Positions 34,974-51,135 of a stretch of 64,000 nt of DNA are shown in pieces. A model generated the notes under the pieces. It was not told where the DNA came from. It did no database searches and saw nothing but the letters and a program-made list of their open reading frames with translations. The stretch lies in assembly GCA_963780685.1 (NCBI GenBank), contig CAWACZ010000012.1, forward strand, positions 195,238-259,237, written 5' to 3'. A program made the translations under genes and the position numbers. Positions within the stretch are counted from its first letter, which is position 1. Every line of letters starts with the position of its first letter. Source of the stretch: an uncultured Acidobacteriota bacterium. GTDB lineage: Bacteria > Acidobacteriota > Vicinamibacteria > Vicinamibacterales > CAVVIG01.

Positions 34974-37900
34974 ATGGCGTTCGGCGCGGCTGAGCCCCGC
35001 TATGAGATCGTCGAAATCATCGGCCGCGGAGGCATGGGAGAGGTCTGTCTCGCCGACGATGTGATGCTCGACCGCAAGGTTGCGCTCAAGTTCGTCAGCG
35101 AGCCCCGCGAAAGAGACGGCCTGGAGCAACTGCTCAGCGAGGCCCGAGCCGCAGCCGCTCTCGACCATCCGTTCATCTGCTCGATTTACGAAGTCACGAC
35201 GCACAACGGCCGCCCCTGCATCGCCATGGAGTACGTCCGCGGCGAGTCGCTCGAACGGCGGCTGCGCGGCGGGCCGCTGCCGCTTGGAGAGGCGCTCCGG
35301 GTGGCGGAAGAGATCGCCGAGGCGCTCGACGCGGCGCACAAGCGGCTCGTCGTTCACCGCGATCTCAAGCCGGCGAACGTCATGCTCACCGAGGACCAGC
35401 ACATCAAAGTCATGGACTTCGGGTTGGCGACCCGCTTGCCGCGGGCCGCCGCCGTCGACCAGGCGGCGACCGTCACGATTGCGGTGACGGATGCCGTCGT
35501 GAAAGGCACGCCGGCCTACATGGCGCCGGAACAGATCCGCGGCGAACCAGCCGATCGCCGATCCGATATTTTCGCGTTCGGCATTCTGCTGTATGAGGTG
35601 GTCTCGGGAACCAATCCGTTCCATCGCGGGGGGATCACCGCCACTTTCGCGGCCATTCTCGGCGAGCCGGCGCCGACGCTCCGCGGCCGCCTGCCGGCGA
35701 TTCCGCCTGCGCTCGATGCCCTTCTGGCACGGCTGCTGGCGAAGGATCAGGCCGCGCGATATCAGTCCTTCGGCGACGTCCGCAGCGCTCTGCGCGGCCT
35801 TTCGGTCGACATGTCTTCGTCGCTCGCGGCGCCGGCCGTTGTCGAGCGGCCGGCAAGCGATGACAGCGCCACGCTGATTGGGCGCGACGCTGAGGGGGCG
35901 CAGCTGCTGCAAAGCCTTCACCAGGCAAGGTCCGGTCGAGGCAGCCTCGTCCTGCTGGTCGGAGACGCGGGTATCGGAAAAACTCGACTGGCGGAAGATG
36001 CCCTGACGGCGGCGCGGCGGCTCGGATGTCAGACGCTCGTTGGCCGATGCTACGAGCAGGAGGACACGCCTGCGCTCATCCCGTACATCGAAGTGCTCGA
36101 GGAGGCCTCCCGGCTGATGCCCGCCGCACTGTTTCGCGAGGCGGTCGGTGCGAGCGCGCCCGAACTGGCGAAACTGATACCGGAGCTGCATCATCTGTTC
36201 CCCGACATGGCGGCGCCGCTGGAGTTGCCGCCGCAGCTGCAGCAACGATACCTGTTCACGAATGTCCGCGAGTTCCTCACTCGAAGCGGTCGCTCCATGC
36301 CGCTCGTGATCTTCATCGACGATCTGCAGTGGGCAGACGAGTCGACCGTTCAGCTGACGCAGCAGCTGGCGCAGCAGCTCGCCAACCTCCCGATCCTCGT
36401 CATCGCGGCGTACCGCGAGGTGGACGTCGCCCCCACTGGCCCTGGCAGGGGCAGGCTTCACAACCTGCTGGACCGGGTCCGTGGTCAGGGGATTCCCGCA
36501 TCACAGTCGATCAAGGCCGCGCTCGATCAGCTGGTCGGCCAGCGCCACGCCCGTACGATCGCGCTGCGCCCGTTGACACAACCCGAAGTGCAGGGCGTGC
36601 TCGCAGCGCTCGGCCAGCCAAACCCGCCGGCCGCGCTCGTCCGGAAATTCGCCGAGCACACCGGCGGAAATCCGCTGTTCATCGCCGAGCTGTTCCGGCA
36701 CCTGAAGGACGAAGGACGGCTGTTCGACGCCCGCAACCACTGGACGCGCAACATCGACCTCGACGATGTCGAGATTCCCGACACGGTGCGCATCGTGCTG
36801 GAGCGCCGGATTCAGCGCGTCTCGCCCGAAACGCAGAACGTGCTGAAAGCCGCGGCGGTGATTGGCCGTCAGTTCGAGCCCGACCTGCTCGAAGAGGTCG
36901 CCGAAATCGACAGCGATACGCTGCTCTCGGCGCTGGACGAGGCCGAGCAAGCCCGGATCCTGAGAGGCCCTTCGGGGCGCCGCGACACCATGTGGCGCTT
37001 TGCCCATCAGTTCATTTGCCAGATGCTGACCGGCGCGATTCCCCAGCTTCGCCGGCAACGGCTGCACTTGCGCGTCGCCGACGCGATGGCGCGGCTCGAC
37101 CGAGAGTCCCGCGTGTACACATCCGGGATCGCGCATCATCTGTACTGTGCCGGCCGCCTGGCCGACCCCGGTCGAGCCGCCCGCGCGCTGATCACGGCTG
37201 GCGACGCCGCGCACGTCGTGTATGCCACCGAAGAAGCGGTCCAGCATTATCGCCGGGCCCTCGAGGTGTTGAAGGATACGAGCGGCCACGAACGAGAGCG
37301 GCTTTCGGTGCAGGAAACGCTCGCGGACCTGCTGGCACTGCAAGGCGATCGCGCCGCAGCGATGGAACACTACGAAACAGTCAGCGCCGCTTACCGCGCC
37401 GCACAGGCGCCGGTCGATCAGGCGCGCGTCGCCCGCAAGACCGGCACGCTCCATTGGCAGGCCGGCGATCGTGCCGAGGCGATGGCGGCGTATCGTCGGG
37501 CACTGGAGGCCCTCGCCGGAGCAACGGCGCACCTCGAATCGGCCCACCTTTATCAGGAGCTGGGGCTCGCCGCGTTTCGCAGCGGAGACAACGACCAGGC
37601 ACGCGAGTGGGCGGAGCGCGCGCTGCAATCGGCGGAGCTCGCGCTCACCGCGCCTGCGTCCGACGGGTCGCAGGTCCGCAAAGCGGCGACAACGGCGATC
37701 GCGCAGGCCACCAATACGATCGGCGTCGCGCTGGCACGGTCCGGGCAGCTCGACGCCGCCCGCGAGCGCATCGAGCGCAGCCTCGCCGCGTCACGGGATC
37801 TGGGACTGCTCGACGTCGCCTGCCGCGCCTACGCCAATCTCGGAGTCCTCTACAGTTCCGTCGAGCCGCAACGTGCGATCGACGTGTCGCTGACGGGGCT

Positions 37901-38330
37901 CGAGCTGGCGTCGAGGATCGGCGCACCGTCGCTCCAGTCGTATATTTACGCGAACCTCGCGGCCGCGTACTGCGCGTTGACCGAAAGGTGCGAAACAGAA
38001 GGCCTTGAGGCGGCGCAGACGGCCGTCGCGCTCGACCGCGAGCTGGGGCAGCTGGACCATCTCGCCGTTCCGCTCGTCGTCATGGCGCAGATCCATCAAT
38101 GCCGCGGCGAGCTCGAGAAGGCGCAAGAGGAGTATCACGAGGCGCTCGCGCTGGCTGAAAAGATCGGCGAGCCGCAGTTGATCTTCCCCTGCTACGACGG
38201 CCTCGCCACGATCCACCTGGATCGAGGCGACCGCGGTCGTGCGGAAGAATTCATGGTGAAAGCTCAGCAGCTGTGCGAACGGACCGGTCTCGATCCCGAT
38301 GCGCTACTCCTGCTCCCGTTCTTGTGTTGA
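34974..38330 (+). CDS. Ser/Thr protein kinase fused to AAA/STAND-type NTPase and TPR array (1118 aa, intact)
   Basis: RYEIVEIIGRGGMGEV...HRDLKPANVM...DFGLA...GTPAYMAPE; Walker A LVGDAGIGKTRLAE; Walker B-like LVIFIDDLQWADES; long TPR-like C-terminus. Confidence 0.9.
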   Translation: MAFGAAEPRYEIVEIIGRGGMGEVCLADDVMLDRKVALKFVSEPRERDGLEQLLSEARAAAALDHPFICSIYEVTTHNGRPCIAMEYVRGESLERRLRGGPLPLGEALRVAEEIAEALDAAHKRLVVHRDLKPANVMLTEDQHIKVMDFGLATRLPRAAAVDQAATVTIAVTDAVVKGTPAYMAPEQIRGEPADRRSDIFAFGILLYEVVSGTNPFHRGGITATFAAILGEPAPTLRGRLPAIPPALDALLARLLAKDQAARYQSFGDVRSALRGLSVDMSSSLAAPAVVERPASDDSATLIGRDAEGAQLLQSLHQARSGRGSLVLLVGDAGIGKTRLAEDALTAARRLGCQTLVGRCYEQEDTPALIPYIEVLEEASRLMPAALFREAVGASAPELAKLIPELHHLFPDMAAPLELPPQLQQRYLFTNVREFLTRSGRSMPLVIFIDDLQWADESTVQLTQQLAQQLANLPILVIAAYREVDVAPTGPGRGRLHNLLDRVRGQGIPASQSIKAALDQLVGQRHARTIALRPLTQPEVQGVLAALGQPNPPAALVRKFAEHTGGNPLFIAELFRHLKDEGRLFDARNHWTRNIDLDDVEIPDTVRIVLERRIQRVSPETQNVLKAAAVIGRQFEPDLLEEVAEIDSDTLLSALDEAEQARILRGPSGRRDTMWRFAHQFICQMLTGAIPQLRRQRLHLRVADAMARLDRESRVYTSGIAHHLYCAGRLADPGRAARALITAGDAAHVVYATEEAVQHYRRALEVLKDTSGHERERLSVQETLADLLALQGDRAAAMEHYETVSAAYRAAQAPVDQARVARKTGTLHWQAGDRAEAMAAYRRALEALAGATAHLESAHLYQELGLAAFRSGDNDQAREWAERALQSAELALTAPASDGSQVRKAATTAIAQATNTIGVALARSGQLDAARERIERSLAASRDLGLLDVACRAYANLGVLYSSVEPQRAIDVSLTGLELASRIGAPSLQSYIYANLAAAYCALTERCETEGLEAAQTAVALDRELGQLDHLAVPLVVMAQIHQCRGELEKAQEEYHEALALAEKIGEPQLIFPCYDGLATIHLDRGDRGRAEEFMVKAQQLCERTGLDPDALLLLPFLC

Positions 38331-38400
38331 CGTAGAATTGTCAGCTCGCAGGTCGAGAGAAACGTTCAGAGGCCGTTGAATCTTGGAAAAGGTTGATCCC

Positions 38401-39069
38401 ATGTCGCTATCAGGCCAGATGCCGGTTCAGCCCGGAGAGCCCGCGCCCGACTTCGCCGTGTCGGCCGTGCACGAGGATCGGATGATTTCGTTGGCAGACT
38501 ACCGCGGAAGGACGCCGCTGCTGCTCGGCCTGTTCAGGGGCCTGTACTGCCCGTTCTGCCGGCGTGCGCTGGCCCAGATGGCCGTCTCGTCCGACCGCCT
38601 GAAATCGCTCGGCGTCGATTCGCTGGCCGTTGTCGGCACCGACGTGGAGAATGCGCGGCTTTATTTCAAGTTCAGACCGACGCGCATGGCGCTCGGCGCC
38701 GACCCGAATCTCGTCACCCACCGCTCGTACCGTGTGCCGCGGCCGGAGCCTACGTCCGAGTTGATGCAAGCGATGGCGAACACACAGATCAACCCGACTG
38801 GAGAGCTCCCGGCACCGCTGCCGGTGCCCGCCGCAGGGGCCGCCCTCAACGCGCTCGACGGCTATCAGAGCACGCCGGCCGATCAGCGGGACTTCGAGTC
38901 GGCGTTTACGCAGTTGAAAGGCCAGTTCCTGATCGACCGCGGCGGCGTCGTGCGGTGGGCCCACATCGAGGGCCAGGAGGGCCCCTCCGGTCTCGGCAAG
39001 TTCCCTTCGCACGACGAATTGATTGACGCGGCGAGTATCGTCATCGGCGGCACACGGGTCGGCACTTAG
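38401..39069 (+). CDS. AhpC/TSA-type peroxiredoxin-like protein (Cys form)
   Basis: MSLSGQMPVQPGEPAPDFAVSAV...RTPLLLGLFRGLYCPFCRRALAQM...FLIDRGGVVRWAHI. Confidence 0.8.
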   Translation: MSLSGQMPVQPGEPAPDFAVSAVHEDRMISLADYRGRTPLLLGLFRGLYCPFCRRALAQMAVSSDRLKSLGVDSLAVVGTDVENARLYFKFRPTRMALGADPNLVTHRSYRVPRPEPTSELMQAMANTQINPTGELPAPLPVPAAGAALNALDGYQSTPADQRDFESAFTQLKGQFLIDRGGVVRWAHIEGQEGPSGLGKFPSHDELIDAASIVIGGTRVGT

Positions 39070-39190: not shown

Positions 39191-39231
39191 TTGACATGCA
39201 CTAGTCAAGTAATCTATTGATTACTTGACTA
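39191..39231 (+). promoter_or_regulatory. TTGACA -35 box plus 30-bp perfect palindrome (13-4-13) overlapping the -10 region and the start codon of the ArsR-rhodanese gene
   Basis: TTGACA at 39191-39196. TAGTCAAGTAATC-TATT-GATTACTTGACTA spans 39202-39231, and its last base is the A of ATG 39231. Confidence 0.6.
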
Positions 39232-39977
39232 TGACCGATCCCCACCGAACCTTCAAGGACCGCCTCTACGGTCAGTTCGCTCGCCTCGGCAAGGCGCTCG
39301 CCAGCCCGCATCGCATCGAGATGCTCGAACTGCTCGCACAGAGCGAACGCACGGTCGATTCCCTGGCGACGGAGATGGGCTTGTCGCTGGCGAATGCTTC
39401 TCAGCATCTGCAAGCGCTGCGACAAGCCGCGCTGGTCGAAAGCCGCAAACAAGGCCTATTCGTCCACTACCGGCTCGTCGACCCGTCGGTCTTCGACCTC
39501 TGTGCCGCCCTGCACACGGTGGCCGAGCGACGTCTCGCCGACTTGGATCGCCTCGTGCGCGAGCACTTCGGGGACCGTTCCGACGCCGAGCCGGTGCGCA
39601 TGCGCGATCTGCTGGATCGGGCGCGGGCGAGCGACGTCATCATTCTCGACGCCCGGCCCGCAGCCGAGTACCAGGCGGGCCATATCGCCGGCGCGATTTC
39701 GGTTCCCATCGACCAGCTCCAGAAACGTCTGCGGTCGCTGCCAGTCGACAAGGAGTACGTGGCGTACTGCCGTGGCCCCTACTGTGTGTACGCCGATCGA
39801 GCGGTCGAACTCCTTCTAAAGAGTCGCCGCCGCGCCCGGCGTCTGCTCGAGGGATTTCCGGAGTGGCGCGCGGCGGGATTTCCCATTGCACGAGGGAGCG
39901 ACGCGCCGGCGGTGCCAGGACGGCCGCGACGGCGCGGTTCACGCCGTCCTCGAAAGCGCCTGCTGACGTCGGTTTGA
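39231..39977 (+). CDS. ArsR-family HTH regulator fused to a rhodanese domain
   Basis: FARLGKALASPHRIEMLELLAQSERTVDSLATEMGLSLANASQHLQALRQAALV (ArsR wHTH), then VIILDARPAAEYQAGHIAGAISVP...YVAYCRGPYCVYADRAV (rhodanese). Confidence 0.85.
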   Translation: MTDPHRTFKDRLYGQFARLGKALASPHRIEMLELLAQSERTVDSLATEMGLSLANASQHLQALRQAALVESRKQGLFVHYRLVDPSVFDLCAALHTVAERRLADLDRLVREHFGDRSDAEPVRMRDLLDRARASDVIILDARPAAEYQAGHIAGAISVPIDQLQKRLRSLPVDKEYVAYCRGPYCVYADRAVELLLKSRRRARRLLEGFPEWRAAGFPIARGSDAPAVPGRPRRRGSRRPRKRLLTSV

Positions 39978-40041: not shown

Positions 40042-40527
40042 ATGATGGAGAAAGCCGTGATGCGACGACGCCTCGAGGTCCAGGGGTTTCTGCTGGACGA
40101 TGTTGCGCTGCGACAGATCGGCAGGTGGCTGCGGTTCACCCCGGCTCTCTGCGCCACGGGCATCGCCATTGGGACTCTCCTCGCCTCTCCGTCGATGTTG
40201 TGGGCGCTTGCGGCAACCGCTGCTGCCGGCGCGCTGTTTCCCAGACATCCGTTTGATTTCCTCTACAACTTCGCTATTCGGTTCCTGACGAGGACGCAAC
40301 CACTTCCGGTCAATCGAGCTCCAAGACGGTTCGCGTGCGGCGTGGCGGCACTCTGGCTCGCTGGTACGGCGATGGCGTTCGAAGGAGGTCAGCCTGCGCT
40401 TGGCTACATCCTCGGAGGAGCGATAGTCGTCCTCGCCACTCTCGTCAGCTTGACGGATATCTGCATCCCTTCGGTTGTTTACCAGTTCCTGTTCGCGCGG
40501 CGCGACCGGAAGGTCGTACGCGTGTAG
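40042..40527 (+). CDS. DUF4395-like membrane protein
   Basis: 161 aa; VQGFLLDDVALRQIGRWLRFTPALCATGIAIGTLL...PFDFLYNFAIRFL...NRAPRRFACGVAALWLAG...LVSLTDICIPSVVY. Confidence 0.75.
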   Translation: MMEKAVMRRRLEVQGFLLDDVALRQIGRWLRFTPALCATGIAIGTLLASPSMLWALAATAAAGALFPRHPFDFLYNFAIRFLTRTQPLPVNRAPRRFACGVAALWLAGTAMAFEGGQPALGYILGGAIVVLATLVSLTDICIPSVVYQFLFARRDRKVVRV

Positions 40528-40560
40528 ATCGAAGCCCTGCACGAGAGGTGGAGGTGACAT

Positions 40561-41343
40561 GTGGCGATGACGTGCCCCGTTGATTTCGACACCGTGACGC
40601 TACGCGCCGAAATTCAGACGATGTATTCGCAGGTCGCCGCCACGCCCGAAGGCTCGTTCCACTTTCATCGTGGACCAGAGTACGCCGTTACCAGGCTCGG
40701 CTACGACGCGGCGGAGCTCGCCACTCTCCCCATCACGGTCACGTCGTCATTCGCGGGTGTTGGCAATCCTCACGCTATCAGGCCCATCGAGAAGGCAGCC
40801 GTCGTGCTCGACGTCGGCTGTGGATCTGGAACCGATCTACTCCTCGCTGCGCGGCATGTCGGACCTGCCGGCCGCGCGATTGGCGTGGACATGACCGAAG
40901 CAATGCGAGCACGAGCATCAGCGGGAGCCGTGCAATGCGGACTCGCTCATGTCGACGTGCGTGATGGCGATGCAACGCGCCTGCCGCTCGAAGATGCCAG
41001 CGTCGACGTGGTCATTTCGAACGGCGTGCTGAACCTCGTACCCGACAAACACAAAGCCATCGGCGAGATCGCCCGCGTCTTGAAGCGCGGCGGCGGTGTA
41101 CAGATTGCCGACATCGTGATCAAGGAGATCCTGCCGGAAAGCACCCTTCGCGACATCGATCTCTGGACCGGTTGAATCGCCGGCGCTCTGCTGGAAGCAG
41201 AGCTTGTCGACGCCTTTGCGGCGGCCGGCTTCGACGATGTGCGCATCGTCGCCCGATTCGATTGCTTCGCAGGAACGACCAAAGAGCGGACGGCGAGACG
41301 GTACGGCGTCGGCGGTGTGAATCTCGTGGCGTCGCGACGATAG
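40561..41343 (+). CDS. ArsM/UbiE-like SAM-dependent methyltransferase with in-frame UGA (candidate selenocysteine) at 41173-41175
   Basis: FHFHRGPEYA, SFAGVGNP, SAM motif VLDVGCGSGTD, VDVVISNGVLNLVPDK, then DLWTG-TGA-IAGALLEAELVDAFAAAGFDDVRIVARF...YGVGGVNLVASRR* in the same phase (783 nt = 261 codons). Homologs as I recall carry GCIAGA at this spot. Confidence 0.75.
41185..41203 (+). promoter_or_regulatory. Candidate bacterial SECIS hairpin for the methyltransferase UGA
   Basis: GCUCUGC-UGGAA-GCAGAGC: a perfect 7-bp stem with a GG-containing pentaloop, starting 9 nt after the UGA. Confidence 0.5.
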
Positions 41344-41377: not shown

Positions 41378-41872
41378 ATGACAATGAAGGTAGCGATTCG
41401 ACGGTCCATTGCTCCCGCTCTGATCGTTGTCGTCACGACCATGCTTTCCGCGTGGGCCAGCCAGGCTGCGGCGCAAACGGCTCAGAAGACGCTGTACGAC
41501 CGGCTCGGGGGCGCGTACAGCATCGCGACGGTTGTGGACGACTTCATCGAGCGCTTGCTCGTCAACGCAACACTCAACGCCAATCCCGCCATCAACGCCG
41601 CGCGGGCACGAGTCCCGAAAGCAGGCTTGAAATTCCAAGTTACGGCGCTCGTGTGCGAGGTCACCGGTGGTCCATGCAGGTACACGGGCCGAGCGATGAA
41701 GGAGTCACATGACCATCTCAACATCACGCAGGCTGAGTGGGATGCAATGGTCGCAGATTTCAGACGGACATTAGAACAGTTCAAGGTACCGCAGCAGGAA
41801 CAGCAGGAATTGATCGCGATCGTCGGCAGCACGAAGAAGGACATCGTCAAGTCGGCGACCGCCAGCCGATAG
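41378..41872 (+). CDS. Truncated hemoglobin (group I-like) with an N-terminal signal peptide
   Basis: MTMKVAIRRSIAPALIVVVTTMLSAWASQAAA, then KTLYDRLGGAYSIATVVDDFIERLL...MKESHDHLNITQAEWDAMVADFRRTLEQFKVP. Confidence 0.8.
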   Translation: MTMKVAIRRSIAPALIVVVTTMLSAWASQAAAQTAQKTLYDRLGGAYSIATVVDDFIERLLVNATLNANPAINAARARVPKAGLKFQVTALVCEVTGGPCRYTGRAMKESHDHLNITQAEWDAMVADFRRTLEQFKVPQQEQQELIAIVGSTKKDIVKSATASR

Positions 41873-41885
41873 CACAGGTGCGATC

Positions 41886-42635
41886 ATGATTTTTCGACCT
41901 TTCTACTATTTCGACCTCGGCTGCGCCGCCTACCTCTTCGGCTGCGGCACGCTCGGCAAATGCGCAGTAGTAGACGCGCGCACCGACGACGTGGAGGCCT
42001 ATGCCGCTTTCGCGACCGCCAAGAACATGCACATTACGCACGTCATCGACACGCACGTCCATGCCGATCATCGATCGGGCGGGCCGGAGCTGGCCCGACG
42101 AACCGGAGCCAGCTACTGCCTGCACGAATCGGCGGACGTGAGGCTGCCATTCACGCCTCTGCAAGATGGACAACAGATCGAGTTGGGAAATACAAGGGTC
42201 ACCGTACTGCACACGCCGGGACATTCACCGGAAAGCATCTGCTTGGTCGTCACCGACCTCAGGCGAGGGCCAGCTCCCTGGTTTGTCCTGACGGGTGACA
42301 CGCTGTTTGTGGGAGCCGTCGGACGACCCGATCTTCCCGGCCATGCCGAGGAAAATGCCGGACAGCTGCACGCGAGTATTCACCAGAAGCTGCTGACCCT
42401 GCCCGGCGACGTGGAGATCTACCCGGGGCACTTCTCGGGCTCGGTGTGTGGCACCGGATTGAGCGGCAAACCGACGAGCACGATAGCGTTCGAACGACGC
42501 TGGAACCCGATGTTGTCGCTGGAGCAGAGCGCGTTCATTGCGGCACTCAGCGATGTACCGCCCAAACCCGAGGCCATGGAGCGCATCCTCGCGTCCAATC
42601 GTGGTCTTCGTGAGGAGACAGAGATCTCCGTATGA
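41886..42635 (+). CDS. MBL-fold hydrolase (glyoxalase II / persulfide-dioxygenase-like)
   Basis: YLFGCGTLGKCAVVDA...ITHVIDTHVHADHRSGG...VLHTPGHSPESICLVV...FTGDTLFVGAVGRPDLPG...IYPGHFSGSVCG. Confidence 0.85.
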   Translation: MIFRPFYYFDLGCAAYLFGCGTLGKCAVVDARTDDVEAYAAFATAKNMHITHVIDTHVHADHRSGGPELARRTGASYCLHESADVRLPFTPLQDGQQIELGNTRVTVLHTPGHSPESICLVVTDLRRGPAPWFVLTGDTLFVGAVGRPDLPGHAEENAGQLHASIHQKLLTLPGDVEIYPGHFSGSVCGTGLSGKPTSTIAFERRWNPMLSLEQSAFIAALSDVPPKPEAMERILASNRGLREETEISV

Positions 42636-43912
42636 TCGACGCCGTGGCGGCTCCTATTCAGATCCGCCTTGGCCTGCGCGAGAACGCCGCGCAATTCGCG
42701 CTGCTGGTCCTCGTCAACGCATTCGTTGGCGCGATGGTCGGCCTCGAGCGCAGCCTTCTCCCCGCCATCGCCGAGCACGACTTTCAGCTGGCTGCACGTA
42801 CAGCCGCGCTCTCGTTCATCGTAGTCTTCGGTCTGACCAAGGCGGCGACCAACTACGTCGCCGGCCGCCTCGCCGACCGTCTCGGACGCAAACAGATACT
42901 CATTGCCGGCTGGCTGGTCGCAGTGCCCGTCCCGTTCCTGCTGATGTGGGCGCCGAGTTGGGCGTGGATTCTGGTTGCGAACGGGCTGCTGGGCGTCAGT
43001 CAGGGATTCACCTGGTCGACGACCGTCATCATGAAGATCGATCTGGTTGGTCCGGCTCGCCGCGGCCTGGCGATGGGACTGAACGAGTTCGCCGGCTACG
43101 TCGCCGTCGCCGCGGCTGCGTTCGCCACGGGTGTCATTGCGGCGCGCACCGGTCTGCGGCCGCAACCGTTCTATCTGGGCGTCGCGTTTGTCGCGTTGGG
43201 CCTCGTCCTCTCGGCACTCGTTCGAGAGACGGCGCCGCACGCCGCATTGGAGGCACAGCAGCGCGGTTCGGCCCCAAGCCGCCTCGGCGCCCGAGAAGTC
43301 TTCTGGCGCACGACAGTTTCTGATCGCGACTTGTCTGCAGTGAGCCAGGCGGGTCTGGTGAACAACCTCAATGACGGGATGGCCTGGGGGCTCTTCCCAC
43401 TCTTCTTCGCCGCGGCAAGCATGGACTTCGCGCAAATCGGAGTGCTCGCCGCCATCTATCCGCTGACGTGGGGCGTGGGCCAGCTTGTGACGGGGGCCCT
43501 TTCCGACATGATTGGCCGCAAATGGCTCATCACCGGCGGGATGTGGATTCAGGCCGCAGCGATTGGTCTCGTCAGCGTCTCGACGGGGTTCGCGGGTTGC
43601 GCGGTCGGCGCCATCTTGCTTGGCGCCGGTACGGCGATGGTTTATCCAACGCTGCTCGCAGCGATCGGCGATGTGGCGCACCCGTCATGGCGGGCATCGG
43701 CCGTGGGCGTGTACAGATTGTGGCGAGATCTCGGCTATGCGATCGGCGCACTGTTGGCCGGCATCTGCGCCGACTGGTTGGGGCTGGCCGGCGCGATGCG
43801 AGTCGTGGCTGCCGTGACGCTCATCTCCGGCCTGGTGGTCGCGATCCGAATGGAAGAAACGCTGTCGCTCGGGAACCTCGGACACGCAGAACCCCTGAAC
43901 CCTGAACCTTGA
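42632..43912 (+). CDS. MFS transporter
   Basis: 426 aa, 12 predicted TM helices; GRLADRLGRKQILIAG motif. ATGA-type overlap with the MBL gene stop. Confidence 0.85.
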   Translation: MIDAVAAPIQIRLGLRENAAQFALLVLVNAFVGAMVGLERSLLPAIAEHDFQLAARTAALSFIVVFGLTKAATNYVAGRLADRLGRKQILIAGWLVAVPVPFLLMWAPSWAWILVANGLLGVSQGFTWSTTVIMKIDLVGPARRGLAMGLNEFAGYVAVAAAAFATGVIAARTGLRPQPFYLGVAFVALGLVLSALVRETAPHAALEAQQRGSAPSRLGAREVFWRTTVSDRDLSAVSQAGLVNNLNDGMAWGLFPLFFAAASMDFAQIGVLAAIYPLTWGVGQLVTGALSDMIGRKWLITGGMWIQAAAIGLVSVSTGFAGCAVGAILLGAGTAMVYPTLLAAIGDVAHPSWRASAVGVYRLWRDLGYAIGALLAGICADWLGLAGAMRVVAAVTLISGLVVAIRMEETLSLGNLGHAEPLNPEP

Positions 43913-43928: not shown

Positions 43929-44334
43929 ATGCCCTGTTGCTCGACCTTCCAAGATGCAGCGGAACGGCAGTTCACCGAGAAGATTGCTCAACGAGATCTC
44001 ACCACCTATCGGCGGAACGGCGCGGGAGTCACGACTCGGCTGCTACGCGACGCGCTCGTCACGGCTGGGGCAACGAAACGGATCGCTCTTGGATGTCGGT
44101 GCCGGCATCGGCGCCCTGACGTTTGAGCTCCTCGAACTTGGCGTTGCGCGAGCGATCGCAGTCGAGGCTTCCGCGGCGTATGTAAGAGCGGCGTCCGAAG
44201 AGGCTGCGATCCCCGCAGTGGTACCGCCCGCCACCACCGCGGCCGGTCGCCCGGGCGTGCGGCGCGCGTCGGGGCCACCCGTAGCGGATCGGCCGGAAGC
44301 CTGGGGACGCGACCCGTGGAGCGGCGCGACGTGA
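43929..44334 (+). pseudogene. Class I SAM methyltransferase with N-terminal CC motif, frameshifted near 44075 and apparently truncated after about 44205
   Basis: MPCCSTFQDAAERQFTEKIAQRDLTTYRRNGAGVTTRLLRDALV, then in another phase GSLLDVGAGIGALTFELLELGVARAIAVEASAAYVRAASEEAA. No recognisable C-terminal half in any phase. Confidence 0.55.
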
Positions 44335-44338
44335 TCGG

Positions 44339-44887
44339 TCAACGAGGTGGTCGACGTCTGGCGACGCCGAGTTCGGCCAGCTTGGCTGCGACGGTCCGCC
44401 CGTGCGTCGCGGGGCTCACCTGTTTGTCGATATAGAGGATCCGGCCGTCGACGCCGATGTAGAAGGTCCAACGCGAAGCGAACGGTTGATCTTCATCAAC
44501 GACACCGTATGCCTTCGCGACGCTCTTGTCCGGATCGCTGAGCAGCGGATAGTCCACACCCAGGGACCGCGCGAAGGCCTGGTTGGCGTCCAGCTGGTCG
44601 ACGCTGGCGGCGAAATAGGCCACGTCGAACGCCCGAAAGTCGTCGCCACTCTCACGGAGTGACTTGCACTCGGCCGTTCAAGCGGGAGAGAACGCCTTCG
44701 CAAACCACGCGAGGACGACTGCCTGTTTCCCCTTGTAATCCGCAAGGGTGTACTGCTTCCCGTCAGACCCCCGCAGCGAGAACGAAGGGGCGACGTCACC
44801 CACCTTCAGTCCGCCTGCGGCAGTGACCGCTGTCGCCAACGCTACGGCCAAGGAAATCCAACCGGCCATCTTGGGTAAGACGCGCAT
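44339..44887 (-). CDS. Secreted peroxiredoxin/Bcp-like redoxin with in-frame UGA (candidate selenocysteine) at 44678-44680
   Basis: ORFs 44678..44887 and 44339..44623 share one phase. Joined read: signal peptide, GDVAPSFSLRGSDGKQYTLADYKGKQAVVLAWFAKAFSPA-TGA-TAECKSLRESGDDFRAFDVAYFAASVDQLDANQAFARSLGVDYPLLSDPDKSVAKAYGV. The peroxidatic Cys position (T/S-P-x-C) is the TGA. Confidence 0.8.
44645..44663 (-). promoter_or_regulatory. Candidate SECIS hairpin for the redoxin UGA
   Basis: Minus strand GUCACUC-CGUGA-GAGUGGC: a 7-bp stem including one G-U pair, starting 14 nt after the UGA. Confidence 0.45.
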
Positions 44888-44919: not shown

Positions 44920-47588
44920 ATGTTAGTGGGGCCTGGCTCTCAAATTGGCGCCTATGAGGTGGTCGCTGCGATCGGCGCAGGCGGCATGGGCGAGGTGTAT
45001 CGCGCGCGCGATTCCAGGCTGAACCGCGACGTGGCGTTGAAGATCATCCGTCAGCCCCTGACCGACGCGGAGCACCTCGCCCGATTTCGCCGCGAAGCGC
45101 AGGTACTTGCCGCGCTCAATCACCCGCACGTCGCCAGCATTTACGAACTCGACGAAGCCGACGGCATGCTCTTCCTGGTGATGGAGCTCGTTCCCGGGCA
45201 GACGCTCGGCGATCTGCTGGCCAGCCGGCCCGCTCGATCTCTGGAAGTCACCGAAGCCCTCACAATCGCGCGGCAAATCGCCGAAGCCCTCGAAACAGCG
45301 CACGACAAGGGTATCGTCCACCGCGATCTCAAGCCAGCCAATATCAGGGTCACGCCGGACGGCGTCGTGAAGGTCCTGGACTTTGGTCTCGCGAAAGCGC
45401 TGTCGGGCGAGGCCGCCGAAGTGAATCTGACGAACTCGCCGACCCTTACCGTCGCTGCAACCAGTATCGGCATGATTCTCGGCACTGCGGGGTACATGTC
45501 TCCGGAACAGGCAAAGGGCCAGGTCGTCGACCGACGCACGGACGTCTTCGCATTTGGCTGCGTACTGTTACGAGATGCTCGCAGGACGGCCAGCGTTCAA
45601 GGGTGAGACGCTGGCGGAAATTCTGGCCGGCGTTCTGAAAACGGATCCGGATTGGAGTCGCCTGCCAGCCGGCACCTCGACGAACGTGACGCGCCTCCTG
45701 AACCGCTGTCTCCAAAAGGACATCAAGGCACGGCTGCGAGACATGGGCGATGCCCGGCTCGAGATCGAAGAGGCTCTCAATCGGCCTGCCATGACGACCG
45801 AGCTCGAGGCAAGCCCGACTGCCGCACGCAGCCTGCAAACGGAGTGGCCGCGGATGCTCGCGGTGGCGGCGGCGGGAGCGGTGGCGGGTGCGATTGCGAT
45901 GTGGAGCCTGAGGTCCGAGCCGCAGGTGCCAACGCTCCCCAGCGGACGCTTCGTCATTGCGCTGCCTGCGAACGAGAGACTCGCAGGGTTGGATTTTCCG
46001 TCGGTCGCGATCGCACCCGATGGATCGGTCATGGCGTACGTCGGGTCACGGAGCGGTCAATCACAGTTGTTCCTCCGGCCGATGAACGGCCTGGAGACAA
46101 CCGCCATTGACGGAACGACCAATGCGATTGCCCCGTTCTTCTCGCCGGACGGTCGATGGCTCGCGTTCTTTGCGGACGGCCAGCTCAAGAAAGTGCCGAC
46201 CGCGGGTGGGTCTCCGGTGACGCTCACCGAGGCGCGGGTCGGCGTCGGTGGCAGTTGGGGCGCCGGCGACACGATTGTGTTCGCAGCCGGAACGGGATCG
46301 GCACTTTCACGCGTGTCCGCCAATGGCGGCATGCCGGAGCGCGTGACGACCCTGGCGGCGGACAAAGGAGAGTTCAGCCATCGCTGGCCCGAGCTGCTGC
46401 CGGACGGCAAGACAGTCATCTACACCGTCGGTACCGCTCGGTCACTGGGACGACGCGCAGATCGTCGCGCAGAAGCTGGGCTCGCCAGAGCGTTCGGTGC
46501 TCGTGCAGGGCGGGACGAATCCTCGCTACCTCGCGTCAGGCCATCTGCTCTATGCGCGAGGCGGCGCAATCATGGCCGTGCCTTTCGATCCAGCCAGTCT
46601 CAAAACCTCAGGTACGCCCATCCGACTCCTGGAAAACGTCCTCCAATCGTTCGACGGCGCCGCACAACTGAGCGTGTCGCCATTGGGCACAGCGGTCTAC
46701 GTCACGGGTGAATTCGAATCGAACCGGCGGCGCCTCACAACCGTCGATCGCAGCGGCGTGGCCACGCCGTTTGCCGCTCCTCTTCAAGCTTACCGAGAGC
46801 CGCGACTGTCGCCCGACGGTCGAAAACTCCTGGTGACCATCGAAGGCTCGACCGAAGATCTCTGGGTCTACGACATGACCGCCGGGACGCTGAACCAGCT
46901 GACGTTCGGCGTCAACGCGGCCCTGCCAATTTGGACGCCCGATAGCCAACGCGTGACGTTCAGCTCGAACGCGGGCGGAACGCCAAATCTGTTTTGGACG
47001 ACGATCGGTCAGCAGAGGGCGGCGGAACGGTTGGCGACCAGCGACAACATCCAGTTGCCGGGGTCGTGGTCTCCCGACGGACGTACGCTGGCGTTCGTCG
47101 AACGACACCCCAGCACGGGCCGCGACATCTGGCTTCTGCGGCTGGACGAAGACCGCGAGGCCCGGCCGTTCCTCACTTCGCCATTCGACGAAAGCGCGCC
47201 GCGCTTCTCACCGGATGGCCGTTGGATCGCGCACGTCTCCAACGAATCAGGACGTGACGAAGTGTTCGTTCGGTCTGTGGCTGACTCCGGCCGCAAACTG
47301 CAGCTGTCGGACGGCGGTGGGACCGAGCCGGTCTGGGCGCGAGATGGAAGCGAGATCTTCTATCGTGTCGGCACCAGGCTGATGGCCCTGCTGATGGCCG
47401 ACGGCCGTCCGGCTCGCGGCGCGCAGCCCCGTCAGCTCTTCGAAGGCGAGTTCGAAAAAGGCTCGATGGATGCCGCCGACTACGACGTGACGCCGGACAA
47501 CCAACGCTTCGTGATGATCGGCGGCAGTGGCACATCGACCGATCACGCAACCATTCACGTCCTCATCAATTGGCGTCTTATTCCTTGA
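44920..47588 (+). CDS. Ser/Thr protein kinase with TM segment and TolB-like WD40 beta-propeller repeats; apparent 1-nt insertions near 45568 and 46440
   Basis: GAYEVVAAIGAGGMGEVYRA...HRDLKPANI...DFGLAK...GTAGYMSPEQ. After the TT at 45568-45569 it reads YEMLAGRPAFKG. PD40-like repeats follow: FFSPDGRWLAF, RLSPDGRKLL, WSPDGRTLAF, RFSPDGRWIAHVS. Confidence 0.8.
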
Positions 47589-48051: not shown

Positions 48052-51000
48052 TCAGCCGCCGAGGCGGCCATATTTCAGGTAAAGAGTGGGCACGACGAAC
48101 ATGTTCAGTAACGTCGACGTCACTAGGCCGAATAGGATGACGATCGCCATCGGCGTCTGAATCTCACTACCCGCCCTGCCGCCGCCCACTGCCAGCGGAA
48201 TCAGCGCCAGTCCTGCGGCCATGGCGGTCATGACGATCGGAATGAGACGTTCGCACGTGCCCCGCTCGATAGCTTCGCGGAAGTCGGTCACGCCTTCCTG
48301 CTCCATCAGATGACGAACGTGCGAAACGAGCATGATGCCATTGCGCGTCGCAATCCCGAATAACGTGATGAAACCGATCATCGACGCCACGCTCAGGACG
48401 CCGCCCGACAGGTAAACGCCAACGACCCCGCCAATCAGCGCCAGTGGCAGGTTCACCATCACGAGGAGCGCGTCGCGCGCTTGCCCGAACGCGAGCACGA
48501 GCAGCATGAAGACTCCTACGACGACGCCTGCCCCGAGGACCAGCAGCCGACGTGACGCGCTTTGCTCGCTCTCGAACTGCCCGCCATATTCGACCCGATA
48601 GCCGGCCGGCAGCGAGACGGCAGCGGCAATCGTCGCTCGCATGTCCTCGACGACGCTCCCCAGGTCCCGGCCGGCGACGTTGCTCGAGATCACGATACGA
48701 CGCTGCACGTTTTCCCGCTGGATCATGTTCGGTCCGCGTTCCCGCCGGACATCGGCAAGCACTCGAATAGGGACCGGCCCGCTATTCGGTGTGTCGATGG
48801 GCAACCCTGCCAGACGGTCGAAATCGGCCTGCGCCGCTGGATCAAACTTCACCACGATGTCGAACGCCGTGGCTCGATCGAAGACGCGACCAACACGCGC
48901 TCCGGCAAAGCTCGTCTCTACCGCCTCGGCGACGTCATTGGGCCGCAGTCCGTAGCGGCCGATGGCCGTCCGATTCAGTACGAATCGCACGACCGGGACT
49001 TCTGTCTGCTGCTCCAGCGACACGTCGACGGCGCCCGGGATTCGAACCATGACATCCCGGACCTGCTCGCCGAGCCGTCGCAGCGTCAGCAAATCATCGC
49101 CAAAGATCTTCACCGCGATGTTGGCTCGCGTGCCCGACAGCATGTGGTCGATGCGATGCGAGATAGGCTGACCGATTGTCACGTTCGTGCCTGGGAGAGC
49201 CGAGAATCCCCGGCGGAGCTCCGCCAGCAACACCCCACGCGGGCGGCCGCCCTCCCGCAGTCCGACATCGATCTCGGCTGCTTCGACGCCCTGTACGTGT
49301 TCGTCATACTCGGCCCGGCCGGTACGGCGTGCGGTCGCCACGACCTCCGGCTGTGCCAGCAGGATCTGTTCGACACGGCGGCCAATCTCGTCCGATTTTG
49401 GAAGCGATGTACCCGGGAGTGTATTCGCCTGGACGGTCAACGACCCCTCATTGAATTCGGGAAGAAACGCGCTGCCCATGCGTGTCGTCGCCACGAGGGC
49501 GGCTGCCAGCAGGCTGCCCGCCACGACCACGATCAAACGCGGCCGATCGAGAGCCAGGGGCAGCGCTTTCGCAAACCGCGCCTTGAGCCACCGCGTCAGC
49601 CAGCCGTCGTGCCCCTGCAGGATCGACTTCGCGTTCGGCAAGAACGCGTAGGACAGCGCCGGTGTGACGATGATCGCCACACCCAGTGACGCCAGCAGCG
49701 CCACGATGTACGCGAATGCGAGCGGCGTCAGGAGCCGGCCTTCCACCCCGGACAGCCCGAAGACTGGCATGAATACGAGAACGATGATGACGGTCGCGAA
49801 CACAATCGAGGTCCGGATCTCGAGTGTCGCATCACACACGACGGCAGCAGCGGCCTGCTGCTCGCCCGGCGGCCTAACCGCGTTCTCGCGCAACCGTCGG
49901 ACTACGTTTTCCACATCGATGATCGCATCGTCGACCAACGCACCGATTGCGATGGCCATTCCTCCAAGCGTCATCGTGTTGATGGTCGCATCGAACGCCC
50001 GTAATACGAGAACGGCGGCGGCCAGCGACAACGGCATGGCGGTCAGCGTAATCGCCGCTGCCCGGAGGTTGGCGAGAAACAACACCACGATGAGGATGAC
50101 GAGCAGCGCGCCGTCGCGCAGGGCGTTGACGACGTTGTGGATCGCGACCTCGATGAAGTCAGCTTGCCGGAAGATGCGGCGATCGATCGTCATTCCGCGC
50201 GACAGCTCCCGTTGAATCGCATCGAGCTCGCGATCGAGTCGCGCGGTCAATTCAACAGTGTTGGCTCCTGGCTGTTTCTGTACGCCGACGATGACCGCGG
50301 GCTTCCCGTTGCGTGAACCCTCGCCCCGTTTCAGCGCACCACCTACGCGCACCTCGGCGATATCGCGGACCAACACCGAGCGGTCGCCGTGCAGTGTCAC
50401 GACGGTGTCGCCGATGTCGGCCGGCGTGCGCGCGCGCCCGATCGTCTCCAGCACGTACTCCTGCGGACCCTCCACATATATGCCAGCCGACGTGTTCTGG
50501 CTCGCGCCCCGCACGGCGTTCAGCAGCTCGTTGACACTGATGTTGTTGGCGCGGAGCTGATCTGGATGGACCACGACCTGAAACTGGCGTTCGGACCCGC
50601 CAATGGGTGTCACCTGCGACACACCGGCCACTGCGAGCAGCCGCCGTCGGACCAGGGTGTCCGCCATTGTGCGAAGAGTCAGCGGATCGTCAGCGTCCGA
50701 CGAAATCGCAAAAAACAGAATCTCGCCCATGATCGACGAGATTGGCGCCAGGATGGGCCGCTCGGCTTGTGGGGGGAGGCTACCGCCGACCAGCGCCAGC
50801 TTCTCGGCAACCACCTGACGCGCTCGAAAAATGTCGGTGCCCCAGTCGAATTCCACCCAGACGACCGCAATGCCAACGGCAGTTGCAGAGCGGACGCGCC
50901 GTACGTCGGACGCGCCGTTGATAGCGGCTTCGATCGGAAAGGTCACGAGCGTTTCCATCTCCTCGGGCGCCATGCCGCGTCCTTCGATGAGAATCGTGAC

Positions 51001-51135
51001 CGTCGGCGCCGTCAAATCAGGAAAGACGTCGACCGGCATGGCTCGGGCAGTCCACATACCAGCGCCGGCGAGCACGATCGACAGCGCCAGAACCATCCAG
51101 TGATGATCAATCGACCATTGGATCAGCTTTTTCAT
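48052..51135 (-). CDS. CusA/CzcA-family heavy-metal efflux RND transporter
   Basis: 1027 aa intact; MKKLIQWSIDHHWMVLALSIVLAGAGMW...DVFPDLTAPTV; TM4 motif AIAIGALVDDAIIDVENV; typical 12-TM HME-RND architecture. Confidence 0.95.
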   Translation of the reverse strand: MKKLIQWSIDHHWMVLALSIVLAGAGMWTARAMPVDVFPDLTAPTVTILIEGRGMAPEEMETLVTFPIEAAINGASDVRRVRSATAVGIAVVWVEFDWGTDIFRARQVVAEKLALVGGSLPPQAERPILAPISSIMGEILFFAISSDADDPLTLRTMADTLVRRRLLAVAGVSQVTPIGGSERQFQVVVHPDQLRANNISVNELLNAVRGASQNTSAGIYVEGPQEYVLETIGRARTPADIGDTVVTLHGDRSVLVRDIAEVRVGGALKRGEGSRNGKPAVIVGVQKQPGANTVELTARLDRELDAIQRELSRGMTIDRRIFRQADFIEVAIHNVVNALRDGALLVILIVVLFLANLRAAAITLTAMPLSLAAAVLVLRAFDATINTMTLGGMAIAIGALVDDAIIDVENVVRRLRENAVRPPGEQQAAAAVVCDATLEIRTSIVFATVIIVLVFMPVFGLSGVEGRLLTPLAFAYIVALLASLGVAIIVTPALSYAFLPNAKSILQGHDGWLTRWLKARFAKALPLALDRPRLIVVVAGSLLAAALVATTRMGSAFLPEFNEGSLTVQANTLPGTSLPKSDEIGRRVEQILLAQPEVVATARRTGRAEYDEHVQGVEAAEIDVGLREGGRPRGVLLAELRRGFSALPGTNVTIGQPISHRIDHMLSGTRANIAVKIFGDDLLTLRRLGEQVRDVMVRIPGAVDVSLEQQTEVPVVRFVLNRTAIGRYGLRPNDVAEAVETSFAGARVGRVFDRATAFDIVVKFDPAAQADFDRLAGLPIDTPNSGPVPIRVLADVRRERGPNMIQRENVQRRIVISSNVAGRDLGSVVEDMRATIAAAVSLPAGYRVEYGGQFESEQSASRRLLVLGAGVVVGVFMLLVLAFGQARDALLVMVNLPLALIGGVVGVYLSGGVLSVASMIGFITLFGIATRNGIMLVSHVRHLMEQEGVTDFREAIERGTCERLIPIVMTAMAAGLALIPLAVGGGRAGSEIQTPMAIVILFGLVTSTLLNMFVVPTLYLKYGRLGG

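Follow-up and report, generated by a model that had tools for sequence, protein, structure and literature searches.

Does a gene that resembles an arsenite methyltransferase, and that carries an in-frame TGA where one of the arsenic-binding cysteines is expected, encode a truncated protein, an arsenic enzyme or something else? The question is raised by a gene, here called MT-U, at positions 40561 to 41343 (forward strand) of a 64,000-nucleotide stretch of contig CAWACZ010000012.1 (assembly GCA_963780685.1) from an uncultured Acidobacteriota bacterium; this whole stretch is referred to below as the window. MT-U is predicted to encode a 260 amino acid selenoprotein (plus stop), a class I S-adenosylmethionine (SAM) methyltransferase with the ArsM fold that belongs to what we call the "V-G-U/C" clade. 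The joint explanation that we think probable on balance is that MT-U is a selenocysteine (Sec)-decoded member of this ArsM-fold clade, that it methylates sulfur or selenium bound to its Sec residue, and that it does so within an operon for reactive sulfur and selenium stress.

The GTG start at 40561 matches the N-termini of aligned orthologues (MA[LM]TCP...) and is preceded, at a distance of 6 nt, by a Shine-Dalgarno sequence read from the DNA (GGAGG, 40550 to 40554, forward strand). From this start the frame contains 204 codons, a TGA at 41173 to 41175, 55 further sense codons (41176 to 41340) and a TAG at 41341 to 41343. The residues around the in-frame TGA read WTG before it and IAGAL after it, and the translation includes the motifs FHFHRG (residues 33–38), SFAGVGNP, VLDVGCGSGTD and VDVVISNGVLNL. 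A first-pass annotation, made from the letters alone, had quoted these motifs, the TGA and the 55 in-phase codons, all of which are borne out by translation, and had described a perfect 7-bp hairpin after the TGA, which is indeed present at 41185 to 41203.

In a search of 5.8 billion proteins, nearly all of the 120 top matches that were looked at are 201–204 amino acids long and end at the Sec codon; the called proteins of close relatives thus omit the 55-codon C-terminal extension, which forms the last strands of the fold. The single close full-length homologue among the matches listed, P0004, has an Arg (CGA) at the Sec column, which may be due to an error in sequencing or to an inactivating or escape mutation. 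P0004 is from a 1.5 kb ENA metagenome contig, and its Arg codon, presumably CGA, is one base from TGA. When one genome per species was scanned, MT-U relatives turned up in 405 genomes, and 80 loci were retained for comparison (81 sequences with the window); these span the Acidobacteriota, Myxococcota, Beta- and Gammaproteobacteria, Gemmatimonadota, Planctomycetota, Verrucomicrobiota, Binatia and others. The Sec column is TGA in 74 of the 80 loci (75 TGA sequences with the window) and TGC or TGT in the remaining six, the loci being from different species-level genomes, so relatives with a cysteine at the UGA column do exist. In almost all 80 loci the tblastn alignments pass through the stop to about residue 259, and the median identity of the orthologues to the window is 57% in the extension versus 62% in residues 1–204. 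Close homologues therefore read on in frame past the TGA and do not end there with a different C-terminus.

The hairpin (41185 to 41203, forward strand; GCUCUGC-UGGAA-GCAGAGC) has a 7-bp stem that begins after 9 nt following the TGA and, folded alone, a minimum free energy (MFE) of -11.7 kcal/mol. The model for bacterial selenocysteine insertion sequence (SECIS) elements specifies a stem of 4–16 bp, a loop of 3–9 nt with a G in its first two positions (N1-G-[G/U]-N-N2), a UGA-to-loop distance of 16–37 nt and an MFE at or below -7.5 (PMC13188914). The window hairpin, with 7–8 bp, the loop UGGAA, 16 nt from UGA to loop and its MFE of -11.7 kcal/mol, lies within these bounds, and 72 of the 75 TGA sequences have the same consensus features (loop pattern, 16-nt spacing and MFE of -7.5 or lower). 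The local-fold z-score at the hairpin is -1.65, and an Rfam scan of the window at gathering thresholds matched no family, including no curated SECIS model. Across the 75 aligned TGA sequences 94.7% of the stem cells pair in register, versus 24–47% when the arms are slid against each other. Compensatory changes in the stem replace G:C by C:G in six loci and U:A by C:G in one. At least six of the seven pairs are kept in 72 of the 74 TGA loci, and the six Cys loci keep only two to five. The 5' arm includes the rare Ala codon GCT (8% of the Ala codons in these genes) in 69 of the 74 TGA loci and in none of the six Cys loci.

Two other accounts of these features were considered and rejected. Conservation of the peptide does not by itself account for the hairpin, since this structure is absent from the Cys orthologues and is built with rare codons in the TGA forms. 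Global reassignment of UGA is ruled out because the real stop codon is TGA in 42 of the 80 orthologues, where it acts as a genuine terminator, so UGA is not reassigned in these lineages. At the level of comparative sequence, these data show that UGA205 is a codon predicted to be decoded as Sec with the help of a SECIS element, and that the expected product has 260 amino acids and not the 204 of the databases.

A second candidate selenoprotein gene lies 3 kb from MT-U, on the minus strand at 44339 to 44887. It encodes a PrxQ/BCP-type thiol peroxidase with a hydrophobic, signal-peptide-like N-terminus and is divided into two open reading frames (ORFs) in the ORF list; its TGA (44678 to 44680) sits at the position expected for the active-site Cys of AhpC/TSA-type proteins (AWFAKAFSPA-U-TAEC) and is followed by 113 more in-frame codons. 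A 7-bp hairpin, GUCACUC-CGUGA-GAGUGGC, begins 17 nt past this UGA. A peroxidase gene with an active-site TGA and a hairpin suggests that the source organism makes selenoproteins.

What kind of methyltransferase is it? In Pfam the MT-U protein matches only generic class I methyltransferase domains (Methyltransf_31, _11 and _25), and D84, G88 and G90 of its SAM-binding motif I, VLDVGCGSG (40804 to 40830), are invariant. A phmmer search of the PDB aligns it with solved ArsM structures: FAGVG falls on the FYGCG of Cyanidioschyzon ArsM (CmArsM), placing Val67 (40759 to 40761; FAGVGNP in full) at the Cys72 position, SNGV falls on SNCV, placing Gly155 (41023 to 41025) at the Cys174 position, and the TGA, in the motif U-I-A-G, falls on the Cys of GEC(L)GGAL, Cys224. 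This alignment puts the TGA at the conserved Cys column of GC(I/V)(A/G)GA, in agreement with the earlier proposal that one of the two C-terminal Cys positions has become UGA and the other Gly. The AlphaFold2 (AF2) model of P0004, which is 68% identical to MT-U and has Arg at the Sec column, has a mean confidence (pLDDT) of 96.1, and its best PDB matches are CmArsM, CrArsM and human AS3MT, with TM-scores of about 0.7 (0.68–0.73; best 0.72) and a root-mean-square deviation of about 2.5 Å. Among the 80 loci the Cys72 column is occupied by V in 62, I in 17 and M in one, and the Cys174 column is Gly in every one.

The residues that are at least 95% conserved in the 80-locus sub-clade are Cys5-Pro6, F33-H-F-H-R-G-P39, Gly155 and U/C205-I-x-G-A-L. 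Cys5-Pro6 (40573 to 40578), invariant in the clade, is present in 79 of the 81 sequences, the other two alignments beginning past that position; Cys5 is a candidate second ligand or resolving Cys. The FHFHRGP motif (40657 to 40677) aligns at or next to the Cys44-region Cys or Cys-Cys of those canonical ArsM rows that have residues there. The first-pass annotation had read MT-U as a non-canonical, ArsM-like selenoprotein whose active site holds a lone selenol. The former part stands, on the Cys losses and the evidence for Sec; the latter does not, since within this clade the N-terminal Cys and the two His of FHFH are conserved, and "single-selenol" is not an apt description of the enzyme.

We surveyed the family with 150 representatives at 50% identity, reading the three Cys columns in each. 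Sixty-four are canonical (C-C-C), and they split cleanly from a second group that has Val, Thr or Ile at the Cys72 column, Gly at the Cys174 column and an FHF[HPN] motif aligned at or next to the N-terminal Cys or Cys-Cys of canonical rows with residues there. At the Cys224 column of this second group, 27–30 representatives have Cys and about 32 are truncated exactly before it; Sec is confined to this group among the 150. In a neighbour-joining tree, likewise, the canonical ArsMs group together without exception (67 of 67) and separately from the V-G proteins, so that phylogeny, too, parts the Gly/Sec subfamily from canonical ArsM. These comparisons show that MT-U has the ArsM/AS3MT fold with an intact SAM site and belongs to a separate, widespread clade in which, as judged from the aligned columns, the Cys224 equivalent is the only ArsM Cys position to survive, as Sec or as Cys.

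Should such a protein be called ArsM? A survey of arsM genes required the SAM motifs and at least three of the four conserved Cys residues (CmArsM C44, C72, C174 and C224) (PMC5552862). MT-U keeps only the C224 column, as Sec, with Val in place of C72, Gly in place of C174 and FHFH in the C44 region, which is fewer than three. Huang et al. (2018) are said to have treated a two-Cys ArsM as the known minimum, which we take to be the Cys174 and Cys224 pair; MT-U and all 80 loci have Gly (Gly155) in the Cys174 column and so lack this pair as well. The ArsM-type N-terminal lid and class I SAM Rossmann fold are both present (Pfam; AF2 model matches). MT-U scores 202.5 bits with the curated arsenite methyltransferase model NF008823, below its cut-off of 263. 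The best NCBIfam matches over the whole methyltransferase domain, NF041537, NF041536 and NF047649, give 210.2, 186 and 183 bits, far below cut-offs of 510, 575 and 460, and every curated NCBIfam cut-off is missed. Because one Cys position is kept where ArsM definitions call for more, we conclude from its sequence that MT-U is ArsM-like in fold and should not be filed as ArsM; the earlier view that it is no canonical ArsM is upheld by both the Cys count (one position of four) and the family scores.

MT-U is the third gene in a tight array on the forward strand that extends from an ArsR-rhodanese gene to a transporter gene. The first (39225 to 39977) is a fusion of an ArsR/SmtB helix-turn-helix domain with a rhodanese domain whose loop reads CRGPYC (Pfam HTH_5 and Rhodanese; NCBIfam), and is the probable operon regulator. 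The second (40042 to 40527) encodes a DUF4395 membrane protein (PF14340, 67.8 bits), which is part of the operon here and is not among the recurrent neighbour clusters of the 80 loci. Downstream of MT-U are genes for a truncated, bacterial-like globin (41378 to 41872; Pfam Bac_globin) with a hydrophobic N-terminus that is a putative signal peptide, for a metallo-beta-lactamase (MBL)-fold hydrolase or dioxygenase resembling glyoxalase II or persulfide dioxygenase (41886 to 42635; Pfam Lactamase_B), and for a major facilitator superfamily (MFS) transporter (42632 to 43912; Pfam MFS_1) whose start overlaps the MBL stop by 4 nt. The MBL protein scores 74 bits with NCBIfam GSH_gloB and 55.7 bits with Blh, both under cut-off.

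When the ORFs within about 8 kb on each side of the 80 loci were clustered, several of these neighbours recurred, in permuted orders: ArsR-rhodanese in 16 loci, MBL in 14, MFS in 17 and globin in five, in addition to the window. The placement of MT-U in an operon headed by an ArsR-rhodanese gene, suggested by the first reading of the window, thus holds there and in those 16 related loci. A second methyltransferase with an N-terminal Cys-Cys is found near MT-U in 20 of the 80. The window has a remnant of a second methyltransferase at 43929 to 44208 (forward strand; N-terminal M-P-C-C, weakly BchM-like), with a frameshift between 44069 and 44083 and the 3' half missing, which marks it as either a pseudogene or an error of assembly; in the 20 related loci the gene is intact and often lies just downstream of MT-U. 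A CoA-disulfide-reductase-rhodanese fusion is encoded near MT-U in four loci. In these (L016, L038, L041 and L042) a flavoprotein with Pyr_redox_2 and C-terminal Rhodanese domains, the architecture of NADH-dependent persulfide reductases, lies within about 5 kb of the methyltransferase.

Among more distant V-G-C relatives the methyltransferase is fused to TusA, DsbA-like thioredoxin or MerC domains, and cultured relatives adjoin OsmC, or an extracytoplasmic function (ECF) sigma factor with a zf-HC2 anti-sigma factor. A plasmid search gave only distant Cys-type relatives (at most 43% identity), in OsmC or ECF sigma factor contexts. This context of sulfur trafficking, in the operon and in the fusions, is the reason that sulfane sulfur or selenium is favoured as the substrate of MT-U; it favours reactive sulfur or selenium, short of proof. 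The first-pass annotation had put forward selenide, persulfide and tellurite, which are candidate substrates.

A mechanism consistent with these features can be proposed. The selenol of Sec205 would lie where ArsM holds As(III), beside the methyl group of SAM, and could capture a soft substrate covalently. Sulfane sulfur or selenium from a persulfide, polysulfide or selenotrisulfide would be taken up to give Enz-Se-S(e)-, whose terminal chalcogen could then attack SAM to form Enz-Se-S(e)-CH3. Release of methanethiol or methaneselenol would fall to Cys5 or, where a sub-clade has no Cys5, to an external thiol, leaving a selenenylsulfide to be reduced again. On this scheme the operon, with its ArsR-rhodanese sensor, persulfide dioxygenase/glyoxalase II-like MBL protein, MFS exporter and globin, may constitute a reactive sulfur/selenium stress module. 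The corresponding statement for the whole clade, that it is not an arsenic enzyme and that it methylates enzyme-bound sulfane sulfur or selenium through a perselenosulfide or diselenide intermediate, volatilising reactive sulfur and selenium by re-use of an ArsM scaffold whose former As(III) site now holds Sec, is a tentative one, possible rather than probable. Methylation as a means of disposal has precedents: MddH disposes of H2S and MeSH by SAM-dependent methylation (PMC11445057), and TPMT is a precedent for methylation as disposal of reactive sulfur (PMC13089183).

Several observations weigh against Sec-bound chalcogen methylation in a stress operon. The function of the clade is inferred from sequence. 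Only about one locus in four has the conserved module, and others carry LysR, cupin or tandem methyltransferase paralogue genes, or nothing recognisable; moreover, an ArsR-family regulator with a methyltransferase and an MFS gene is also an arsenic-style layout. The N-terminal decapeptide that contains Cys5 is of low confidence in the P0004 model (mean pLDDT 64), and several more distant Sec-containing sub-clades have no Cys5, so Cys5 is not essential to the general mechanism. Within the 64-kb window ARAGORN found no tRNA or tRNA-Sec, and selA, selB, selC and selD are not directly seen there. As(III) is expected to bind selenols strongly. Finally, As(III) is methylated by the Thermus thermophilus enzyme TtArsM, which has a single active-site Cys and two His that are predicted to serve as ligands (PMC8649762).

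The last points lead to the main alternative to a chalcogen substrate, namely that MT-U does methylate arsenite or methylarsenite, through a remodelled site in which As(III) is held by Sec205 together with Cys5 and/or His34 and His36 in place of Cys174, Cys72 and Cys44, in an arsenic-resistance operon whose MFS protein exports the product. The ArsM fold, the residue retained at a known As(III) ligand position, the TtArsM precedent, the ArsR-family regulator with an MFS pump, and the name arsenite methyltransferase that JGI pipelines give to MT-U-type proteins would all fit it. We consider it unlikely. MT-U falls short of the three-of-four-Cys definition and, with its invariant Gly155, of the two-Cys minimum, and its NF008823 score is under cut-off; at NCBI the cultured V-G-C relatives are named simply "methyltransferase domain-containing protein". 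The arsC, acr3 and arsB families are absent from the annotated recurrent neighbour clusters in the surveyed flanks of the 80 loci, and the translated ArsR domain has no classical CVC-type As(III) site, the sole paired Cys of the protein being those of the rhodanese loop. The TusA and DsbA fusions and the rhodanese context point instead to sulfur or selenium.

A second alternative keeps the selenocysteine and removes it from the substrate: Sec205 and Cys5 would form a selenenylsulfide redox switch that gates a methyltransferase acting on an ordinary small molecule not bound to Sec. Cys5 is invariant along with U/C205 in the clade, the neighbours include peroxiredoxin-like proteins, a globin and OsmC, and redox proteins make up the majority of known bacterial selenoproteins (PMC13188914). 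Set against this, the place that Sec takes in the ArsM active site is that of a substrate ligand, Cys5 is missing from many sub-clades that contain Sec, and no candidate pathway for an organic substrate is conserved beside MT-U, and we find such a switch decidedly improbable. The remaining alternative, that the TGA is a genuine stop, a pseudogene lesion or a sequencing error, that the product is a truncated 204 amino acid protein and that the hairpin is a terminator or a coincidence, could appeal to the public gene calls of close relatives, all of which end at the TGA, to the CGA of P0004 and to a z-score of merely -1.65, but is scarcely credible and as far as sequences can tell effectively refuted by the comparative data, given that the same codon recurs in 74 independent genomes with Cys in six, that the downstream frame is conserved as protein, that rare synonymous codons and compensatory changes uphold the hairpin in TGA forms only, and that from a 204-residue product the final helix and strands of the P0004 model (H212-220, E224-233 and E251-259) would be missing.

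Some further features of the loci may be recorded. Directly upstream of the operon (38383 to 39069, forward strand) is a gene for an AhpC/TSA-fold protein with a CPFC motif, whose best NCBIfam match is "SelL-related redox protein" (46 bits, below cut-off), a thiol/selenol redox family. In the regions 34974 to 38330, 44920 to 46711 and 48052 to 51135 (minus strand), large Ser/Thr kinase genes flank the module and a CusA/CzcA-type resistance-nodulation-division (RND) efflux pump is encoded nearby; the first kinase gene has an AAA/TPR-like tail, and the second region appears split in two ORFs. In eight related loci (L054, L056, L057, L061, L062, L066, L070 and L078), whose hosts are Myxococcota, Thermodesulfobacteriota, Methylomirabilis and others, the methyltransferase is accompanied by a conserved protein about 330 amino acids long, often with an EamA transporter also present; this protein has no Pfam or NCBIfam match, and its E-x-x-H-like motifs suggest that it may be a ferritin-like di-iron protein.

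If Sec-bound chalcogen methylation is the correct reading, it bears on how such genes are counted. Close public records of the clade end at the Sec codon (201–204 versus about 260 amino acids), many are named arsenite methyltransferase or UbiE, and curated NCBIfam models do not capture the clade. Homology-based counts of arsM in soil and groundwater metagenomes probably include MT-U genes, which lack the arsenic-binding residues; if the clade does not act on arsenic, the truncation at UGA together with the "arsenite methyltransferase" label would inflate arsM-based estimates of soil arsenic methylation. The relatives in 405 species-level genomes, with best matches dominated by soil Acidobacteriota, would then represent a selenium-dependent route in sulfur and selenium (or arsenic) volatilisation by abundant soil bacteria. 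In this clade the ArsM scaffold is pared down to a single chalcogen nucleophile, with Sec preferred, and is supplied with new conserved His and Cys motifs; the clade is a candidate for covalent, Sec-mediated methylation of chalcogens or metalloids; its interest would grow were chalcogen methylation demonstrated.

How does MT-U compare with known systems? Sec at the UxxG position of ArsM-like enzymes is already known (Fomenko et al. 2007; NF041536, NF041537, NF047649). The apparent novelties are the clade as such, an active site that has been both stripped and re-equipped, abundance among soil Acidobacteriota and many other phyla, and a Sec codon that is read through in none of the close public records; the clade is without mention in BSepDB, deep-Sep, GOS and the Peng 2016 selenoproteome literature. 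The nearest precedent is the selenoprotein arsenite methyltransferase of Fomenko et al. (2007, Science), for which PMC13188914 gives the motif UxxG, family NF008823 and accession WP_011987699.1. Like it, MT-U is an ArsM-fold SAM methyltransferase with a UGA-encoded Sec in UxxG and a bacterial SECIS immediately downstream, and the UxxG of the known enzyme fits the Cys224/Cys206-equivalent GEC(L)GG, which is the Sec position of MT-U (U-I-A-G). Unlike it, MT-U scores under the NF008823 cut-off, lies in a different clade, has FHFHRGP and Cys5-Pro6, and is without the Cys72 and Cys174 equivalents that define ArsM; here the known Sec-ArsM is compared by description and not by sequence.

The fusion families NF041537 (ArsM/AhpD), NF041536 (ArsM/DUF2284) and NF047649 (a methyltransferase/UXPK-star double selenoprotein) share the UxxG Sec motif with MT-U, and Sec-containing ArsM-like fusion families are reported to have been added by Haft and Tolstoy in 2025. 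Unlike these, MT-U is a single-domain protein with one Sec, an ordinary TAG end and no AhpD or DUF2284 domain; the second-Sec tail of UXPK-star type was looked for and occurs in none of the 80 orthologues. Canonical ArsM and AS3MT (CmArsM 4fr0/6cx6, CrArsM 5evj and human AS3MT 8xt7) have the same fold, about 30–34% identity, the SAM motifs and the Cys224-equivalent position; unlike them MT-U has lost three of the four catalytic or As-binding Cys, and its family is a branch of its own. TtArsM has one active-site Cys (Cys77 in its own numbering), a Cys conserved in characterised ArsMs, with two His as proposed further ligands, is under ArsR/SmtB control and is evolutionarily distant from other ArsMs (PMC8649762). 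Likened to MT-U by description, it shows that an enzyme with fewer of these Cys may still methylate As(III); unlike MT-U, it has no Sec. MddH and MddA (PMC11445057) and TPMT (PMC13089183) are functional analogues only, in that reactive sulfur or selenium is turned into volatile or excretable methyl compounds; MddH is a UbiE-family protein and MddA a membrane enzyme, and the accessible portion of their source mentions Sec or a catalytic Cys for neither.

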